From: Lytechinus pictus | Taxonomy: Eukaryota | NCBI RefSeq assembly: GCF_037042905.1 | Contig: NC_087251.1 | Span: forward strand, 5,706,001-5,770,000 | DNA: 64,000 bases | Reading direction: 5' to 3' | Shown: positions 1-23,111 of the stretch, one piece after another | Numbering within the stretch: the first letter of the stretch is position 1 | Layout of the letters: each line of letters begins with the position of its first letter | Program-made: the position numbers and the translations under genes | Notes under the pieces: generated by a model | What the model saw: the letters and a program-made list of their open reading frames with translations, nothing else | What the model was told of the DNA's origin: nothing | Database searches by the model: none

Positions 1-1605
1 TTCTTTTAACATTGTTCTGTTTGGGGTTCTATTCTGAAATTCTTCCCATTATTTTGTGAATGTTACAGCAGATTTCCTCAGAATTTGTTGCTCAGTATTG
101 TTCATAAGACAGTTAATTTATGGAAATCTGCATCTTTATCATGGAATACATCTGAACTTGACAAATACCTAATCCTTCTTTAAAGAAAATGCATGGAAGT
201 GGAGTAGACATCAGTGCAATTTGAAATTCATGAATTCAAAAGTTATTCAGAGTTTTTTACACTTATTCCAGTGCACCTTCATTCATTTTGCCTATTCAGT
301 TTTTCTTAGTCAAAAGTCAGTCACAAAATTAAAATGGCTAAGACAAGACAGCTTTCTTTGGAAACACGTCAGTCAATCGTAGTTTTGAGGAAAGAAGGTT
401 ACTCCATGCGAGAAATAGCCGGGAAACTCAAGATCAGTATCCATGCTGTTCACTACAGCCTGAAACGCAAAGAGGCCACTGGGTCTAATGGGGACAGGAG
501 ACGAAGTGGTAGGCCAAAAACAACATCTCCTGCTGAAGATAAATACATTCGGGTGAGCAGTCTGCGCAACCGTTGTCTGACTTGCCCACAGATTACAGCT
601 GACCTCAACAACACCCGTGAGATGCCTGTATGTTCTTCAACTGTTAGAAACATCTCTGTGGAGCAGGGCTGATGGGCCGTGTGGCTTCAAGGAAACCTCT
701 CCTCAAAGAAAAGAACCGGAAGAAAAGGCTTGCTTGGGCTAGGAAGCATAAAGACTGGTCTTTGGAGCAGTGGCAGAAGGTTCTTTGGTCTGACGAATCA
801 AAGTTCGATGTGTTTGGCAGCAAGCGACGTACCTATGTGGGACGGCGAAAGGGAGAAAAGATGCTGGGCCCAGTGCATCAAGCCAACTGTGAAACATGGT
901 GGTGGTAATGTCATGGTATGGGGTTGCTTTGGTGCAGGAAAGGTAGGCAGCTTGCACAGTGTAGAGGGTATCCTCAACCAGAACGGCTATCATTCAATCC
1001 TACAGCGGAAGGCCATCCCTTCAGGGAAACGCCTGATCGGAGGATTCGTTTTCCAGCAGGACAATGACCCAAAACACACGTCAAGACTATGCAAAGAATA
1101 CTTGAAGAAAAAGGAAGAGAAACAAGTCCTGGAAATCATGGATTGGCCGCCCCAGTCCCCAGATTTCAATCCCATCGAGCTGCTTTGGGAAGAACTAGAC
1201 AGGAAGGTTCGAGAAACTTGCCCAACAAGTGAGACTCATCTGTGTTTTCCATATCAGTGAAACACTGAGTATTGTTTAATTTTATTTTTGTGTCTGACTT
1301 CTGACTAGGAAAAGGAAAAATGAATGAAGTTGCACATGTATTAGTGTAAAAGCTCTGAATAACTGCAATAACTGCATGTAATAAAAGAAGTTAGCATTTT
1401 GAGAGAATGCCATCTTGACTGGTAGCCAGCCATTTAAGAGAGTATAAATTTGTTTGAATCAATATCAAAATTTACACTGCTGTATATAATCTTCACTTTA
1501 AAACAAAAATTCAACTGTGCTATGAGCCTGAATATCAATAAAGTCTACCAAGTATAGAAAAGCACACACTGAATGCAGGTGTTCCCAAACTTTTGGAGGG
1601 GAGTG
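1..1605 (+). mobile_element. Tc1/mariner DNA transposon (DD38E type); left end lies outside the window
   Basis: Transposase remnant at 334-1260. The right end reads ...GTGTTCCCAAACTTTTGGAGGGGAGTG (to 1605) followed by TA; its reverse complement CACTCCCCTCCAAAAGTTTGGGAACAC is Tc1-like. Confidence 0.9.
334..1260 (+). pseudogene. Tc1-like transposase pseudogene with two frameshifts and a C-terminal truncation
   Basis: Three ORF pieces join into a paired-like HTH N-terminus with GRPK, then WSDESKF, TVKHGGGNVMVWGCF, FQQDNDPKH and WPPQSPDFNPIELLW. Frameshifts lie near 649 and 867. Homology is lost after PTSETHL. Confidence 0.95.
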
Positions 1606-3216: not shown

Positions 3217-4444
3217 TGTATATATATATATATATACATATAGTAAAAAAAACTTGTATCTCCATTAATATACAAAAGTATTGGCCTCATCGCAATAAAA
3301 GGGTTAATACACGAGAGTTTGAAATCGCACATAACATGCATAATTTGTGTTACTTTTTGCTTGTTTCTTTCTTTAATATGTTTTAGAAAGATTATATGTT
3401 TAAATTGATGTATATTTCTGTTATAATGAGATATGTTTAAGTGGACTTCAGGGAATGGTCGTACGCAGCAAGGGGGAAGGGGGGGGCACATTCGCGATCT
3501 GCTGTTGTGAAAAACAATTTTTTTTTTCCTTAACATTTCATGAAAACTATGAAAAATGTGCAAATGTGAGATGTGCACCAAATTTTCGAGTCTTGCCCCC
3601 CCCCCCCGGAAATATTATCTGCGTGTGGTCATGCAAAATGGCATGACTGGAAATCCTACATTTTGAAAAGAGCATTTGACAGGGTCAGACTTTACCCCTT
3701 TTTCAACATTTTCTTTTATGGCGCCGGTGAAGTGCAAAAATATGTGCGCCGCTCGGCAGTGCGCCCCCCCTTTCGCCAAAAGCTGGATCCGCCTATGCGT
3801 CTCTTGCATACATGAAAATGGGAAACGATGTTTTTTCCCGAAATGAATTATGACGAAATCAATATTAAAGAGAAGTACATGGTCGAAATAACCTGCTTAA
3901 ACACGGGCACAGCTACAAGATAGAAGTAAGAAGCAGCAGTAGCATTCAGGGGCGTCGCTAGGCCTTTTCCAGATTACCGACAAATATCAGTACCGATTAC
4001 TGACGTCCCGCGACCATGAATCTTGTACGTGTTCTCTTTAGTCACATTTTCTTTCGTCACGCCAAGGAGCAGCTCCAGCTTTCATAATGGGGGGGGGGAT
4101 ATTTTCATCCGCGTTTCCACGTCGCGGCCGCCAAAATCTGTGGGTTTTTTTAAGAATTAGTCCTTACTAAATTTTCATTCTTAGAAGCAAGATAAGGTAT
4201 TTTATGTGACCTGGATATAAGTTACTATGCGAGCGCAAAGCGCGGGCTAAATTTTTTGTATATTTTATATACTTAGACCTTAAAATTGAATATTGTGACC
4301 ACTTTTGTTTTCATAAACTAGAGGGGTATCTAACTAAACGATCCATGTGAGCGCAAATTGCGAGCAAAGATTAGTTGAAGACTGTTTGCAGTGAACCGTG
4401 AAATAATAAAATTTTCACCCATCCAAAAATGCGAGCGCGAAGCG

Positions 4445-4622
4445 TTGTGGGCGTTATGGCGTGCGCCTGTAATCCAAGCTATGTGGGGAAGTTACAAATT
4501 GATGCAGAGGTTCGAGCCCTGGTCACGTCTTTCGAATGGTGACGTTAAAGGTCGGTCCCAGACGTAAATAATCATATCTGATTGAAACACGTCTGACAAA
4601 ACTAAAATACACACACACACAC
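4445..4622 (+). mobile_element. SINE with 7SL/Alu-like head, B-box, Deu/Nin-like core and (CA)n tail
   Basis: Head GGGCGTTATGGCGTGCGCCTGTAATCCAAGCTA; B-box GGTTCGAGCCC at 4509-4519; core GTCTTTCGAATGGTGACGTTAAAGGTCGGTCCC; tail (AC)n. It splits a host GCGAGCGCGAAGCG/CG(C)TAGCTGAAAAT motif. Confidence 0.75.
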
Positions 4623-6165
4623 GCTAGCTGAAAATGTCATATTTTTACCTGAAAACTCGATTGTAACCATGAAGAGGATAGATACATTAACCAAACAATC
4701 GTTGCGAGCGCGAAGCGTGAGTTGAAAATTTTGATTCCGACCAGAAAACTTGACATTCTAAGGACTTTTTGTAAGAACAATGTGTGTATAACTAGACATT
4801 TCATGCTAGCGCGAGCTAAAAAAATTTAATTAAGTGTTCTGGAAAGGACATGTTGATTAATTGTTTGCAGTGACTCATTAATAGAATACATTTCTTACTA
4901 ATCAAATAGAGCGAGCGCAAAGCACGAGCTGTAAAAAAATATATTTCGACCAGAAAATTTGACTGTAATCATGAAGAGGATGGATATAATAACCAAACAA
5001 TTGATGCGAGCACAAAGCGCGAGCTGAAAATCTTGATTTCCGACCAGAAAACTGGACATTCTAAGCACTTTTGCACGAACAATATGCGTATAACAATTCA
5101 TGCAAGCGCTAGCTGATATTTTCAACTAACTGTTTTGAAAAGTACATGTTTTTTAACTGTTTACAGTCATGATACATTTTCACTAATTATATAGAGCGAG
5201 CGCGAAGCGCGAGCTGAAATTTTTTGATATTTTAACTTGAAAACTAAAAATATTACACGTTTTTACTTTTCAACAAACTTAGTTTCTGCATCTGTAATTG
5301 AACAAGCTGTGTACCTTAAAAAAAATAATGCGAGCGTGAAGCGCGAGTTGAAATTATCGGTTTATTACTGACCCGAAAGTTAAATTTTATGCACTGTCCA
5401 ACATGAACGAAACTTGTGGAGAGAATATTGATCTCACTGAATATATGATAAGAGCGCGAAGCGCAAGCTGAAAATTTGGAGACCTAGACTTTAAACCGGG
5501 CCATTTTTATCACTGTCGGTTAAGCGCGAGCTGACATCTTTTGATATTTTTATTTTTTTAAAATTAACATTTTGACTTAAAACTTAATAGTTTTACACCT
5601 TTTTTTATAAAAAGAACAAACTCTAGTGCGGCATTTGCAATTTAACAACCTGTGTATCTTAATGCGAGCGCGAGCGGAAATTTTCGATATTCTGGGGGAG
5701 AATTTAAGCACTGTCCAACATGAAGGGAAAATGTGGAGAGGATATATGGATCTCACTATGCGAGCGCGAAGCGCCAGCTTAGCTTTTAATGTGGATTTAG
5801 GCCGAAAAAACAGACATTTGAAGCGATATGACCTTAAACAGGATGGATATTTTAACAAAAAATATATTACTATATGATGCTAACGCGAACCGTGAGCTGA
5901 TTTTTTTCGATATGAAAAATGGATTACTAAGCCAAATTAAAGACATTGGATATCCAATGAAACAATGCGAGCTGAAATTTTTTTTATTAAGACCTGAAAA
6001 TTTGACATTTTGAGAAGGATGTTTTTCATGAAGATCAAGATATAACTATGTAGACCTATCTCAATAAACAGTTATTACGAGCGCAAAGTGGAAGCTGATT
6101 TTTTTTTATCTAGACTTTAAAAAGGTAACACGCTTTTTGCACTTCTTGTAATAATGGAAACGAAG

Positions 6166-18712: not shown

Positions 18713-21700
18713 CACAAAAACCTGAATAATGTTATAGAGTTGGTCTTACCTTGTCTTCTTAAAAACAATAAGAAAAGTGAAAAGGAATACTTAGAATTAA
18801 GATAATGACAAGAGCTTAAACTTTTGTGTTTTTTAAAACTATTTTTCATGAACTGTTTCCAATAGTGAACTTTCGTAGGTGAATATGTGGAAAACAACTC
18901 AAAGGAGAAAAGGAAAGACCACGATGTAGAGCGCCACCTTGATCTCCCTAAGGCATACAGAAGAACTAGCCTTTGGTATGATTTGTTTTTTGTGTTTTTT
19001 GTTTGCTGAACCTGATTGTTTAATATATGTTGAACCTGATCATATGATGGTGGTACTTTTAAGAAATTCATATCTCAATTATGGATTTGAAGCTGATGAC
19101 ACATAATGTGAACGGATTGGGGGACTTTAAAGCAAGGAAACGTTATTTTAATTATATGCTTAAACAGAACAAAGATATTATCCTTTTACAGGAAACTCAT
19201 TCTGTTGAAAAGGAAGAATCATTATGGAGAAATCAAGTTAGAGCTGATATTATTTTCAGTCATGGAACTTCTAAGAGCAGAGGAGTATGCATTATATTAA
19301 GAAAGACACCTGATTTTAAAGTGTTAGACTCCATTAAAGATATAATGGGACGATTTTTATTGGTAAAAGTTGAAATTCAGAAGAAAGTTTATGTGATTTG
19401 TAACATATATGCACCAAATAATGAGACGGATCAGGTTGAGTTTTTTAAGAAGGTAGACTTGACCATACAAGATAATGTTGAAAATGGGGAAATTCTTATA
19501 ATTGGTGGGGACTTTAATTTAATTCAAAACCTTGATCTGGACAGGGCAGGTGGCTCAATGAAAAGTATTTGGAAGCACTCTGTGAATCTTATAGAAAGTA
19601 TGAAAATTTATTTTGGTTTGGCTGATGTATGGAGAATCAGAAACCCTTGCAAAAAAGGATTTACTTGGAGAAGGTATAACCCAATGGTGCAATCTAGATT
19701 GGATTTTTGGTTAATCCATGAATCATTACAGAATACAATTAGTGAAAATGATATTATACCGTGTGTTTTGTCTGATCATGATCATGTTAGTTTACACATG
19801 AAAATTGGGACAAAAAAGTTTGGTCTGTCCTACTGGAAATTTAACAATAGTCTATTGAATGATATGGAGTATGTTAATGCTTTAACTAATAAGTACTCAA
19901 AATGGATTGATGAGTTTACAGATAGTAATGACAAAGGAGGACTATGGGACTGGTTAAAGTTTAAAATTAGAGAATTTACTGTACCATTTTCTAAGAAGAA
20001 GAAATGTGAAAGGGAAGAGAAAAGAAAGGATTTTGAAAAAGAATTGAAGAAAATAGATGACATGATGGCAGCAGAAGATATAGATGAAGAATTAATGAAA
20101 AAGAAAAGGGAGATAGAACAGGAGTTGTTTAAAATATATGACTATTTTGCAGATGGGGCAATCTTGAGGTCAAGGTGTACATGGTACGAGAAAGGGGAAA
20201 AGAGTACTAAATATTTTTTGTCATTGGAAAAAGGTCAAGCAGCAAACTCTAATATTGATGTTTTAATTTCAGATGTGGGACGTATTGATAAACAGTATGA
20301 AATACAGGATTTCATTAAGAATTCATATAAAACTTTGTTTGAGAACAAAGATAAGGTGGAAGATGAGGTGAGTAGAGAGTACATAAGTCAGAGTAACATC
20401 AAGCAACTCACAGATGAAGAAAGAAATTCGTGTGAAGGAAACATCACTTGCTCTGAAGCTAGGGCAGAATTGTTAAAAATGGCTAGAAATAAAACACCTG
20501 GGAACGATGGGTTAACTGTGGAGTTTTATGAGAGGTTTTGGCCTTTGATATCAAAAGAAGTTATTGATTCTTTCAATTTTGCATATGAAAATAGTGCAAT
20601 GTCTGTGTCACAAAGACAAGGTACAATTAAACTCATCCCTAAGCCTGATAAAGATAAACACACACTGAGCAATTGGCGTCCCATAACTCTTTTAAACGTA
20701 GATGTTAAAATACTTTCTAAATGCTTGGCGAAGAGAGTTGCTAAGGTGATAGGAAAGTTAGTAGATAGTCAACAAACTGCCTTTATTAAAGGCAGATACA
20801 TAGGGGAAGGAATAAGGTTAATATCAGACCTTTTACAATATACTGAGGAGGAGAATTTGAGAGGTATTATGCTAGCCCTTGATCTAACAAAAGCATTTGA
20901 TTCAATAAGCCACAGGTTCATGCTAAATTGTTTAGAAGTGTTCAATTTTGGACCATTTTTCATACAATGGGTTAGAACATTGCACACTAATATAAGTAGT
21001 TGTGTTTTGGTGAATGGATTTACCACTGGCTATTTTCCAGTGTCTAGAGGAGTCAGACAAGGTGATCCTCTTGCTCCTTTACTGTTTATACTGAGCTTGG
21101 AAGTTGTTCTTACAAGACTTAATAATAATGATAATATTCAGGTTTTTGAACTTAGTGGAAAACAAATAAAGTATACAGCTTATGCTGACGACATAACTTG
21201 CTTTTGTAGGAATGTTCAATCAATGAAGATGGTTTTCAAAGTTTTTGAAGAATTCTCAATCATATCAGGTCTTTATTTGAATAAAACAAAAACGGAAGGA
21301 ATTTGGATTGGGAAAGATAGGCACAATGGAGAAAAAGCAAATGATATACATTGGGCAGACAAAAGCATCAGAGTTTTAGGCATTTATTTCTCATATGATC
21401 AGGAAATAGTCAGGAAACTGAACTTTGATAAGAGACTGGATGAAATAAAATGTACTTTCTTAAGATGGAAGAATCGGGGATTAACTTTATTAGGGAAAGT
21501 TCAACTATTGAAAACATTTGTTATGTCTAAGATTATGTATATAGTTTCCAATATTGTAATACCCGATGATTTTATTAAGGAGGTTGAAAAGTTGATGTTT
21601 CAGTTTATGTGGAAAGGCCCAGATAAGATATCACGGGCAACAATGATTGCAGATTATACCGAAGGTGGTCTGAAATTCCCGAAACTAAAATGCATGATAG

Positions 21701-23111
21701 AGACACAGCTGGTTAAGTGGATTCAGAGATACTATACATAATCAGATCATCATTGGAAATTGTTCTTTGACCATTATTGTAAACGATTTGGTGGAAAATT
21801 GATTTTTATGAGTAATTATTTTGTGAGCCAGTTGAACTCTCTTGGAATTCCCTTATTTTATCATAACTTGCTGTTAGCATGGTCCAAGACAAAGGAGTAT
21901 AATCAATTTGTTGATGATCAAGGAACCCAAGCAAGTGTACTTAGTCAAATTGTTTGGAATAATCAATATATTCTTATTGATAATAAATCAGTATACTGTA
22001 AGGCCTTTCATGAGGCAGGTCTATGTTATGTATATCAACTTTTTGATCTACATGGAAACATAATGCAATTTAATTTTTGGAAAGCAAGAGGAGTACCACA
22101 TAAATATTACATGATATATTTGGCAATAGTATCACTAGTCAGGAAGAAATGGGGAAGTTCATTTAATCAATTGTTGATACAAATGTTCTTGGAGAAAATA
22201 GATTATGAACATGATCAGTCCGTCCTTTTGACAGGAGAAATTCAAAAACTAAAAACTAGAAATATCTATGTTGATTTAGTGAGTAAATTAACACATAGAC
22301 CTGTCTGTGAGCCCCTATTTTCCACTAAATATGGGATAGAGGAGGAAGAATGGCCACAAATGTATTTACTCCCATTTAAATGCACAATAGAAGTTAAAAT
22401 GAGAGTCTTCCAGTTTAAAATTTTGCATAATATTCTCTACACCAATGAGAGATTATTTAAAATGAAGCAAGTTGAGACAGAACTTTGCACATTGTGCAGG
22501 ACCTCTGTTGAAACTCCTTTACATCTTTTTTTATGAATGTAAGGTTGCTGAAGATTTAAGACATGCTTTTGTTGATAAAATTGGTCTGAAGCTATCTGTC
22601 AGATATGAGGATCTATCTAGGAAAAGAATGATGTTTGGCTTCATAAAGGATTGGAAGGGACCACATAAAATATTACTGAATCACTTAATTATCTTATTGA
22701 AGAGATACATTTATATTCAGAAATGCAGGAATTTAGTAGTAAGTTTTATAGGTTTTGAAGCATTCATTTGCAAAATCAGACATATAGAATTGGTAATTGC
22801 TAAACAAAAGCACAAAGAAAACATGCACTATAGAAAATGGTCCCCTATTGAGAATTTATTTTAATTATCCATAATTATATTTTGATGAAACAATCCAAAC
22901 CACCAGGGACTCATTTTTTAGCTTTTGCATCAGGTCTGTTTGTTTGTTGTTTTTTTTTTTTTTTTTTTGGTAATTGTTACAGTGATTCCTATTTAATTAT
23001 TGTTCTTTTAATGTTATACAATTATGTAATTCATGTATGATTGTTGTTTTTGTAATGTTACGAAAAAATCTTGAAAATCAATAAAATTTGGAAAAAAAAA
23101 AAAAAAAAAAA
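18713..23111 (+). mobile_element. 5'-truncated L1/Tx1-clade non-LTR retrotransposon
   Basis: 15-bp TSD AATATTCAAATGCTC at 18698-18712 and 23112-23126. AATAAA at 23080 and poly(A) at 23092-23111. Contains a full ORF2; no ORF1 is recognisable. Confidence 0.95.
19081..22864 (+). pseudogene. LINE ORF2 (APE endonuclease, reverse transcriptase, C-terminal Zn knuckle), ~1260 codons, with one nonsense codon and one +1 frameshift
   Basis: APE motifs THNVNGL, LQETH, NIYAPN, GGDFN, SRLD, SDH. RT motifs KTPGNDG, NWRPITLLN, DLTKAFD, GVRQGDPL, YADD. In-frame TAA at 21739-21741. Removing an extra T in the run near 22526-22532 restores CTLC..ETPLHLFYEC. Confidence 0.95.

Follow-up and report, generated by a model that had tools for sequence, protein, structure and literature searches.

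According to the accessible parts of the literature, specialists hold 7SL-derived short interspersed elements (SINEs) to be extremely rare, with three origins, all of them vertebrate, and a full Alu domain with a particular central deletion is credited for their success. In these sources they are known only from supraprimates, shrew mole and hagfish (Kojima 2020, PMC7245038; Kojima 2024; Kosushkin et al. 2024); a precedent in amphioxus, which an earlier note on the present DNA had mentioned, is absent from them. The window in this study, a stretch of 64,000 nucleotides from the sea urchin Lytechinus pictus, holds what that note, made from the letters alone, described as a retroposed SINE with a 7SL/Alu-like head. 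Two questions arise from the locus: does the head descend from 7SL RNA in an invertebrate, and what may such a head be kept for? The best explanation as a whole, which is considered highly probable, is a SINE family of about 1,300-1,700 copies in this echinoid genome, in which a 7SL head is combined with a foreign B box, a stem-loop and a (CA)n end, and which RNA polymerase III would transcribe and a 'stringent' LINE would mobilise.

The SINE copy and its surroundings

The element is present where it had been proposed, at 4445-4622, except for its left bound: the sequence shared by 35 aligned copies begins at T4448, and 'AC' precedes this base in most other copies. The window copy opens TGGGCGTTATGGCGTGCGCCTGTAATCC... 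and has the following parts and neighbours (coordinates of the window).

4448..4622, + strand: full-length SINE copy of 175 bp, without the first two bases 'AC' of most copies, as delimited by genome matches
4448..4492, + strand: 7SL-derived head, corresponding to 7SL nt 3-46 in the alignment to host 7SL genes
4451..4460, + strand: site corresponding to the A box of 7SL (nt 6-15 of that RNA, as placed in the accessible part of PMC7245038), a putative promoter element
4468..4472, + strand: U-turn TGTAA between helices 3 and 4, with U23 and G24 of the SRP9/14 'triad'
4493..4558, + strand: non-7SL body, with the hairpin GTCAC...GTGAC and a 5'-truncation hot spot
4509..4519, + strand: tRNA-type B box GGTTCGAGCCC, read from the sequence and without 7SL ancestry
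4559..4595, + strand: 3' stem-loop CAGACGT...ACGTCTG, which a partner LINE's reverse transcriptase may recognise
4596..4622, + strand: short unique tail, then a (CA)n microsatellite at 4610-4622
4642..4646, + strand: TTTTT, the first downstream run of at least four T, a possible RNA polymerase III stop
4425..4447, no strand assigned: left half of the interrupted host repeat motif, from alignment to neighbouring units of the dispersed repeat
4623..4700, no strand assigned: right half of the interrupted host repeat, from the same kind of alignment

The B box and the (CA)n tail of the earlier note are both found in this copy. Its claim of a clean interruption of a host repeat is borne out by flank alignment, in which a motif of the form GCGAGCGCRAAGC...GAGCTG is split by the SINE copy, so that the left flank runs to ...GCGAAGCGTTG and the right flank restarts GCTAGCTGAAAAT... 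The host repeat, a dispersed or loosely tandem one, occupies 4190-5010 of the window with units ~215 bp apart that carry this motif, and is absent from the output of Tandem Repeats Finder.

The whole window gave no Rfam match at gathering thresholds and no tRNA by ARAGORN. With relaxed Rfam settings, the only notable match of the window copy was to mir-1268 (24.6 bits, E=0.02), a model that we take to be Alu-derived, and neither a tRNA model nor the SRP model (Metazoa_SRP) matched this copy at E<=10.

Origin of the head

A genome search with Metazoa_SRP identified seven full-length 7SL genes (272-283 bits), three of them in tandem on contig C10, three on C1, and one on C12 (L037). The 7SL genes start ACCGGGCGTTGTGGCGTGCGCCTGTAATCCAGCTAC..., and most SINE copies start ACTGGGCG; in 48 of 64 SINE copies, GGGCG is preceded by 'ACT', which matches the 7SL 5' end. 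Of 38 aligned bases in the window copy, 34 agree with the host 7SL genes, and one base is additional. For a less mutated copy (L038), identity is 38/40 to a C10 7SL gene and 42/46 to the C12 paralogue, with the first 34 bases all identical to the latter, and this near-identity upholds the earlier proposal of a 7SL-derived head. Past nt 46, no likeness to any part of 7SL was detected, the local scores of 12-15 being compared with shuffle means of 15.3-15.5. On sequence comparison, the head, i.e. the first 45-46 nt, is copied from the host 7SL (SRP) RNA.

Covariance and profile searches agree with the pairwise alignments. In cmscan, Metazoa_SRP matches a less mutated copy with 34.6 bits (E=1.8e-7) and its tandem neighbour with 31.9 bits (E=1.1e-6), although the SINE copies, at 32-35 bits, fall below the gathering score of the model, which is 70. 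Another 18 genomic hits of this model lie below the threshold, and the 13 places inspected among these 18 all proved to be the SINE. Conversely, an nhmmer profile of the SINE matches the seven 7SL genes at profile positions 1-41 (1-35 in L037), with E values of about 3e-6 to 6e-6, and nothing beyond the SINE family and the 7SL genes in 252 kb. These scores indicate that the 7SL match of the head is no chance result.

A competing origin is a tRNA-derived head, as in an ordinary SINE2, with a likeness to 7SL/Alu that arose by chance or convergence. Such an origin would be in keeping with the canonical tRNA-type B box, and the sea-urchin SINEs named in the accessible literature are all classed as tRNA-derived. 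Yet ARAGORN finds no tRNA in the window, and Rfam gives neither a tRNA nor a 5S rRNA family at E<=10 for the window copy or, by cmscan, for two other copies. In addition, 42 of 46 bases are those of a host 7SL paralogue, host-specific bases included, and the SINE profile matches all seven of the seven 7SL genes. A tRNA-derived head is thus extremely improbable, and the tRNA and 5S comparison suggested in the earlier note has come out on the side of 7SL.

The 7SL genes themselves differ at one position that is informative about the source of the head. A base pair of helix 2, T3 with A (in GGAAGT), separates the SINE from six of the 7SL genes, and both of these bases occur in L037. Therefore, an L037-like paralogue of contig C12 is the likely donor, and the alignments point to a C12-type paralogue as the most likely source of the head. 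Among the 7SL paralogues, this is a compensated pair, with C3 and G in six genes and T3 and A in L037 (C12, minus strand). L037 looks like a functional variant, since it is identical to a C10 gene (L031) at 286 of 299 positions and has kept the conserved upstream motif.

Size, age and boundaries of the family

The genome searched comprises 812 Mb in 368 contigs and gave at least 1689 SINE candidates at first look. It also contains a bindin gene (Pfam, 236.7 bits), which encodes a sperm protein of echinoids and so points to a sea urchin or near relative as host. Forty scored places yielded 42 matches, the best 41 with 92-100% identity and one a 50-base fragment, and the ends of nearly all scored matches lie at window positions 4448 and 4620-4625. 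The best 40 genome matches with the boundaries of the window copy in common have 92-98% identity. The flanks of 35 SINE copies are mutually unrelated, flanks are unique in most of the copies inspected, and the element is 175-183 bp long.

Copy number was estimated by counting four motifs of 28-33 bases in the whole genome with up to two mismatches, for which the reversed-pattern controls were all 0. The head 28-mer has 1296 matches (the seven 7SL genes among them), the 33-mer across the junction of head and body has 721, the body 32-mer has 1431, and the tail 33-mer has 1294. Exact tail words of 24 and 18 bases have 856 and 988 matches, respectively, again with reversed controls of 0. By a listing of sequencing runs, all 13 sampled words occur in runs of two organisms, and RNA runs with marine or echinoderm labels have part of them. 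Since head, body, and tail are about equally common, they appear to belong to one family, and with motif counts of 721-1431 the element is far from the single copy that had been considered as a possibility.

Inspection of individual places leads to the same picture. Altogether 78 places were inspected, 21 of them reached through the body motif, 19 through the tail, 15 and 3 through the shorter tail words, and 20 through the head; all 78 are the SINE, either full-length, 5'-truncated, or interrupted. In every inspected copy the identical 46 nt 7SL piece is joined to the identical non-7SL body and tail, and none of the 78 places has another head on the SINE body. Two copies that seemed to have an alternative head (L088 and L096) are in fact full copies with an insertion of about 150 bp. 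The median identity to the majority consensus is 98.8% among 60 sampled copies, a sample biased toward well-preserved copies since these were picked as best hits or exact-motif hits. The family is young.

Body, putative promoter and proposed mechanism

The order of parts after the head is a short spacer, the B box, the hairpin GTCAC...GTGAC, the 3' stem-loop, a short unique tail, and (CA)n, the length of which differs among copies. In many copies, the seven bases that begin the B-box motif are duplicated directly upstream (GAGGTTCGAGGTTCGAG). Both predicted folds of one family copy, the minimum-free-energy and the centroid one, contain the 3' stem-loop. The element has no internal run of four T, and the first such run of the window copy is 20 bases downstream.

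A possible mechanism of mobilisation can be described as follows. The 7SL A box is placed at nt 6-15 in the accessible part of PMC7245038, and RNA polymerase III may initiate at the 7SL start site by means of this A box and the downstream foreign B box. The transcript would end at the first T-run of the flank. The 3' stem-loop together with the (CA)n tail would then serve as recognition site for the reverse transcriptase of a 'stringent' LINE, probably of the CR1/L2 type, which would copy the SINE RNA into a nicked target; as an outcome, target-site duplications would vary or be absent, and 5' truncations would be frequent.

Target-site duplications and the putative partner LINE

Target-site duplications of at least 8 bp flank 11 of 63 copies, as against 27 of 496 controls with mismatched flanks, and about 80% of copies are without one of this length. 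Clear duplications were seen in L004 (30 bp), in L038 and L084 (14-16 bp), and in the truncated copy L090 (12 bp). Copies truncated at the 5' end are frequent, and their breakpoints gather at the hairpin bases; a truncation starting CGTCTTTCGG was found in 5 of 19 tail-selected copies. The target-site duplications in some copies and the 5' truncation of others suggest LINE-mediated retroposition. Together with the join of a 7SL head to a non-7SL body, they also support the earlier description of the element as a retroposed chimeric family. Partners of the CR1/L2 type would be expected to leave truncations and duplications that vary or are missing, along with tails made of a hairpin and a microsatellite. 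LINEs of this type are the partners listed for other sea-urchin SINEs in the accessible part of PMC3747384.

Could the copies instead be fragments of 7SL retro-pseudogenes, or segmental or satellite duplicates, with no SINE family of autonomous promoter behind them? Some copies do lie within larger repeats with flanks in common, among them the dimers at four loci and copies that have the same 3' flank, and one copy lies inside a tandemly duplicated 7SL array. Against this, the 78 inspected places combine a constant 46 nt of 7SL with a constant non-7SL body and tail, whereas 7SL retrocopies would hold varied lengths of 7SL; in addition, the flanks are mostly unique, and target-site duplications and 5' truncations occur. 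Duplication or pseudogene formation as the sole origin of the copies is therefore very improbable. A retroposed SINE family accounts for them better, with the qualification that some copies are passengers of larger repeats and, therefore, not every copy represents a separate retroposition event.

Two apparent variants of the family were examined and set aside. The form called 'subfamily C', which is 86% identical and lies upstream of 7SL genes, is a single old insertion that was duplicated locally, with 3 matches, all on C10. The second is an Alu-like dimeric SINE: head-to-tail dimers with a (CA)n-CTA joint and identical outer flanks were observed at L039 329-705, L040, L048, and L067 (on C18, C2, C4, and C1), and the common flanks of the dimers at these four loci identify them as passengers in a larger repeat.

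The partner was looked for in several ways. None of the 78 inspected places runs on into LINE sequence, the tail-only matches inspected on contigs C1 and C2 are all truncated or mutated SINE copies, and no LINE with the SINE tail was found within 252 kb. A parent tRNA-SINE with the same body was likewise not found outside the family by sensitive blastn in 192 kb and nhmmer --max in 252 kb, which is a small and SINE-centred sample.

The window itself contains a LINE at 19063-23110 (+), with an endonuclease plus reverse-transcriptase open reading frame at 19063-22536 (892 + 264 aa, with one stop between) and an end formed by AATAAA and a poly(A) run. As a partner of the SINE it is ruled out by its poly(A) end and the lack of any similarity to the SINE tail.

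The SRP Alu domain and a possible role of SRP9/14

When the structure line of Metazoa_SRP is laid on the first 48 nt of the SINE, helix 2 (ACU/AGU), helix 3, the UGUAA turn, and helix 4 (UCC/GGA) are recovered. By this line, the head is the whole 5' domain of the SRP Alu RNA, in which helices 2-4 are accompanied by the U-turn and complementary loops. Across an alignment of 14 sequences, comprising 7SL genes and SINE heads, no change occurs in the triad G4/U23/G24 or in the loop GGC, and the loop GCU is retained in 13 of the 14. The retained 7SL piece exceeds the A box and ends at the closing strand of helix 2.

Binding of SRP9/14 needs these features, the U-turn triad and the complementary loops, as stated in the accessible part of PMC12265939. 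According to the accessible part of PMC12199147, a 5' Alu domain of 46 nt is enough in HeLa cells both to associate with SRP9/14 and to be retrotransposed by L1, and in human cells this domain alone binds SRP9/14 and supports 73-86% of Alu-level retrotransposition. The motifs kept in the head make a use of SRP9/14 by the SINE plausible. By analogy with what is proposed for Alu, the retained 5' Alu domain may bind SRP9/14 and thereby place the SINE RNA at ribosomes that are making LINE protein; we regard this step as possible, with the balance leaning somewhat against it.

The variation among subfamilies bears on this point. Within the head, differences gather at nt 35-41 of the consensus, in or beside the helix-4 loop; the second main site of variation is nt 71, at the B box, and positions 43-53 vary in about 7% of copies. 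In the commonest SINE subfamilies, the second loop C is replaced by U or deleted. This C presumably pairs in the vertebrate loop-loop contact, and its loss in the commonest subfamilies therefore weakens the SRP9/14 reading. The fold stability of the head shows no excess over shuffled sequence (z between -0.06 and 0.79).

It is also conceivable that the 7SL piece is kept solely as a promoter module for polymerase III, i.e. start site and A box, with no role of SRP9/14 or the ribosome. The element would then be an ordinary stringent-LINE SINE in which the 5' half of a tRNA was swapped for 7SL. The 7SL A box at nt 6-15 (accessible part of PMC7245038) is followed by a canonical B box at the normal distance, and promoter retention alone would explain why the A-box region is conserved. 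A partner would be expected to read the 3' stem-loop and the tail, for which docking at the ribosome is not obviously required. Both the helix-4 loop, which differs between subfamilies, and the fold stability, which is at the level of shuffled sequence, fit a piece kept for its promoter. What does not fit so easily is the extent of the piece: it goes on for 30 nt after the A box and ends with helix 2's 3' strand, where the 5' Alu domain closes. Moreover, all subfamily variants examined have preserved the stems, the U-turn triad, and the loop triplets that are complementary to each other, in contrast to loop bases close by, which vary. Retention for the promoter alone is a strong contender, falling only just short of an even balance.

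The fuller proposal, that an echinoderm arrived independently at an Alu-like strategy, holds that a minimal SRP9/14-binding domain of 46 nt was grafted onto a stringent-LINE SINE, in which docking at the ribosome would help to capture a non-L1 reverse transcriptase. Drawn by analogy with Alu, this proposal is made tentatively and is rather doubtful. If true, 7SL-derived SINEs would have arisen a fourth time, and for the first time beyond the vertebrates, and the family would provide natural evidence for the 5' domain alone as the selected unit, as opposed to the complete Alu domain with its central deletion. The retained length agrees with the minimum of 46 nt that experiments in human cells established in 2025 (accessible part of PMC12199147), and the family offers a natural, independent test of SRP9/14 docking for SINEs, including those that depend on LINEs recognising a 3' structure.

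Comparison with known SINEs and classification

The known 7SL-derived SINEs keep both ends of 7SL around a central deletion, as described in the accessible parts of Kojima 2020 (PMC7245038) and Kosushkin et al. 2024. Like the urchin element, Alu, B1, Tu, and Urop have a head from the 7SL 5' end, with A box, U-turn, and helices 3 and 4. However, as far as the accessible sources describe them, they hold 7SL regions 1-63, 76-83, and 267-299, with the B box of 7SL and the Alu domain's 3' strand among them, and they have A-rich tails and use L1; the urchin element is without the 7SL B box and the 3' Alu strand and without an A-rich tail, and it would not rely on L1.

The closest likeness in nature is with SINE1-1_EBu of hagfish (accessible part of PMC7245038). 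Both arose independently of Alu/B1, join a 7SL-derived head to non-7SL, SINE- or LINE-derived parts, are young with up to a few thousand copies (2363 in hagfish by Kosushkin et al. 2024), and have a simple-repeat tail and an expected non-L1 'stringent' partner. The hagfish element retains the 5' and 3' regions of 7SL, so that its Alu domain is full apart from a central deletion; its RTE-derived parts are bipartite, and it ends in (AAC)n, whereas the urchin element has 7SL nt 1-46 only, a foreign B box, a (CA)n end, and an invertebrate host. The family would add an invertebrate origin with a different build: 5' domain only, foreign B box, and non-poly(A) tail.

With respect to the length of the head, the engineered constructs SA46 and AY46 (Moldovan, Yin and Moran 2025, PMC12199147, accessible part) are the nearest parallel, since the first 46 nt are the laboratory minimum and the urchin family has the first 45-46 nt of 7SL. 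Those are human constructs with a CMV promoter that use L1 through poly(A); the urchin element, in contrast, is natural and has its own putative polymerase III boxes and a non-poly(A) tail.

Among the sea-urchin SINEs, SURF1/SINE2-4c_SP, SINE2-3_SP, and SINE2-8_SP share with the present family the host group, the B box, and partners of the CR1/L2 type (accessible part of PMC3747384; for the present family a putative partner). They differ in being described as tRNA-headed, a comparison made by description only, and one of these names may already cover the 7SL-headed family under a tRNA label. A full-text literature search, with the entries of Repbase, Dfam, and SINEBase outside its scope, returned no 7SL-derived SINE of an echinoderm or other invertebrate. 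As far as the accessible literature shows, then, the family is undescribed as 7SL-headed, which agrees with the novelty suggested in the earlier note, and it may already sit in a database under a tRNA label.

SINEBase defines a SINE as an interspersed element of <1 kb with at least 100 copies (PMC3531059); the family has a length of 175-183 bp and motif counts of 721-1431. The hallmarks of retroposition are present (duplications, 5' truncations, and a variable simple-repeat tail), with the duplications in a minority of copies only. The head comes from 7SL (42/46 against L037), as in SINE1. The 5' and 3' parts of the Alu domain around a central deletion, which are also characteristic of SINE1, are not found, since nothing is 7SL-like after nt 46. 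The overlap with 7SL is 46 nt, and the SINEBase rule for 7SL asks for at least 60% identity over an overlap of at least 60 nt (PMC3531059). The recognisable tRNA head of SINE2 is absent, with the B box only. Because it departs from SINE1 in these two respects, the family is placed in the 7SL-derived kind but not as a plain member. Rules based on a 60-nt overlap with 7SL miss families with a head of the 46-nt type.

The 7SL loci and other observations

On C10, at about 7.91-7.92 Mb, an old SINE copy (86% identical) lies 34 bp upstream of a true 7SL gene in equal orientation (L031 877-1049 and 1290-1466; L035 and L036). It sits between the conserved proximal upstream motif of the 7SL gene and more distal upstream sequence. 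A tandem duplication then took in the SINE with its flank, and three occurrences of the whole unit are present. For a family of about 1,400 copies in 812 Mb, a chance landing so near one of a handful of 7SL loci is unlikely (below 1e-3 by a rough estimate), and the arrangement may point to a preference for polymerase III genes as targets or to recombination with 7SL.

A B-box-like motif, GGTTCGAGTCC or a near variant, lies downstream of six among the seven 7SL genes (L031-L036), no more than about 20-50 bp from the T-run of the terminator; no such motif was seen in the L037 flank that was displayed. The motif of L031, at about 1805-1840, forms a perfect tRNA-like T-arm, CCTGG TTCGAGT CCAGG. 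It could represent a downstream TFIIIC site or the remnant of a tRNA.

The interrupted SINE copies L088 (about 1280-1420) and L096 (reverse strand), and possibly L114, are broken right after the B box, at CCCTGG. The inserts, about 150 bp each, differ from one another and have a short ATTGGCTGAAA motif in common; they might represent a small DNA transposon that prefers a particular target. Elsewhere in the window, at 673-1260 (+), an open frame resembles, by its translation alone, a fragment of a Tc1/mariner-type transposase.
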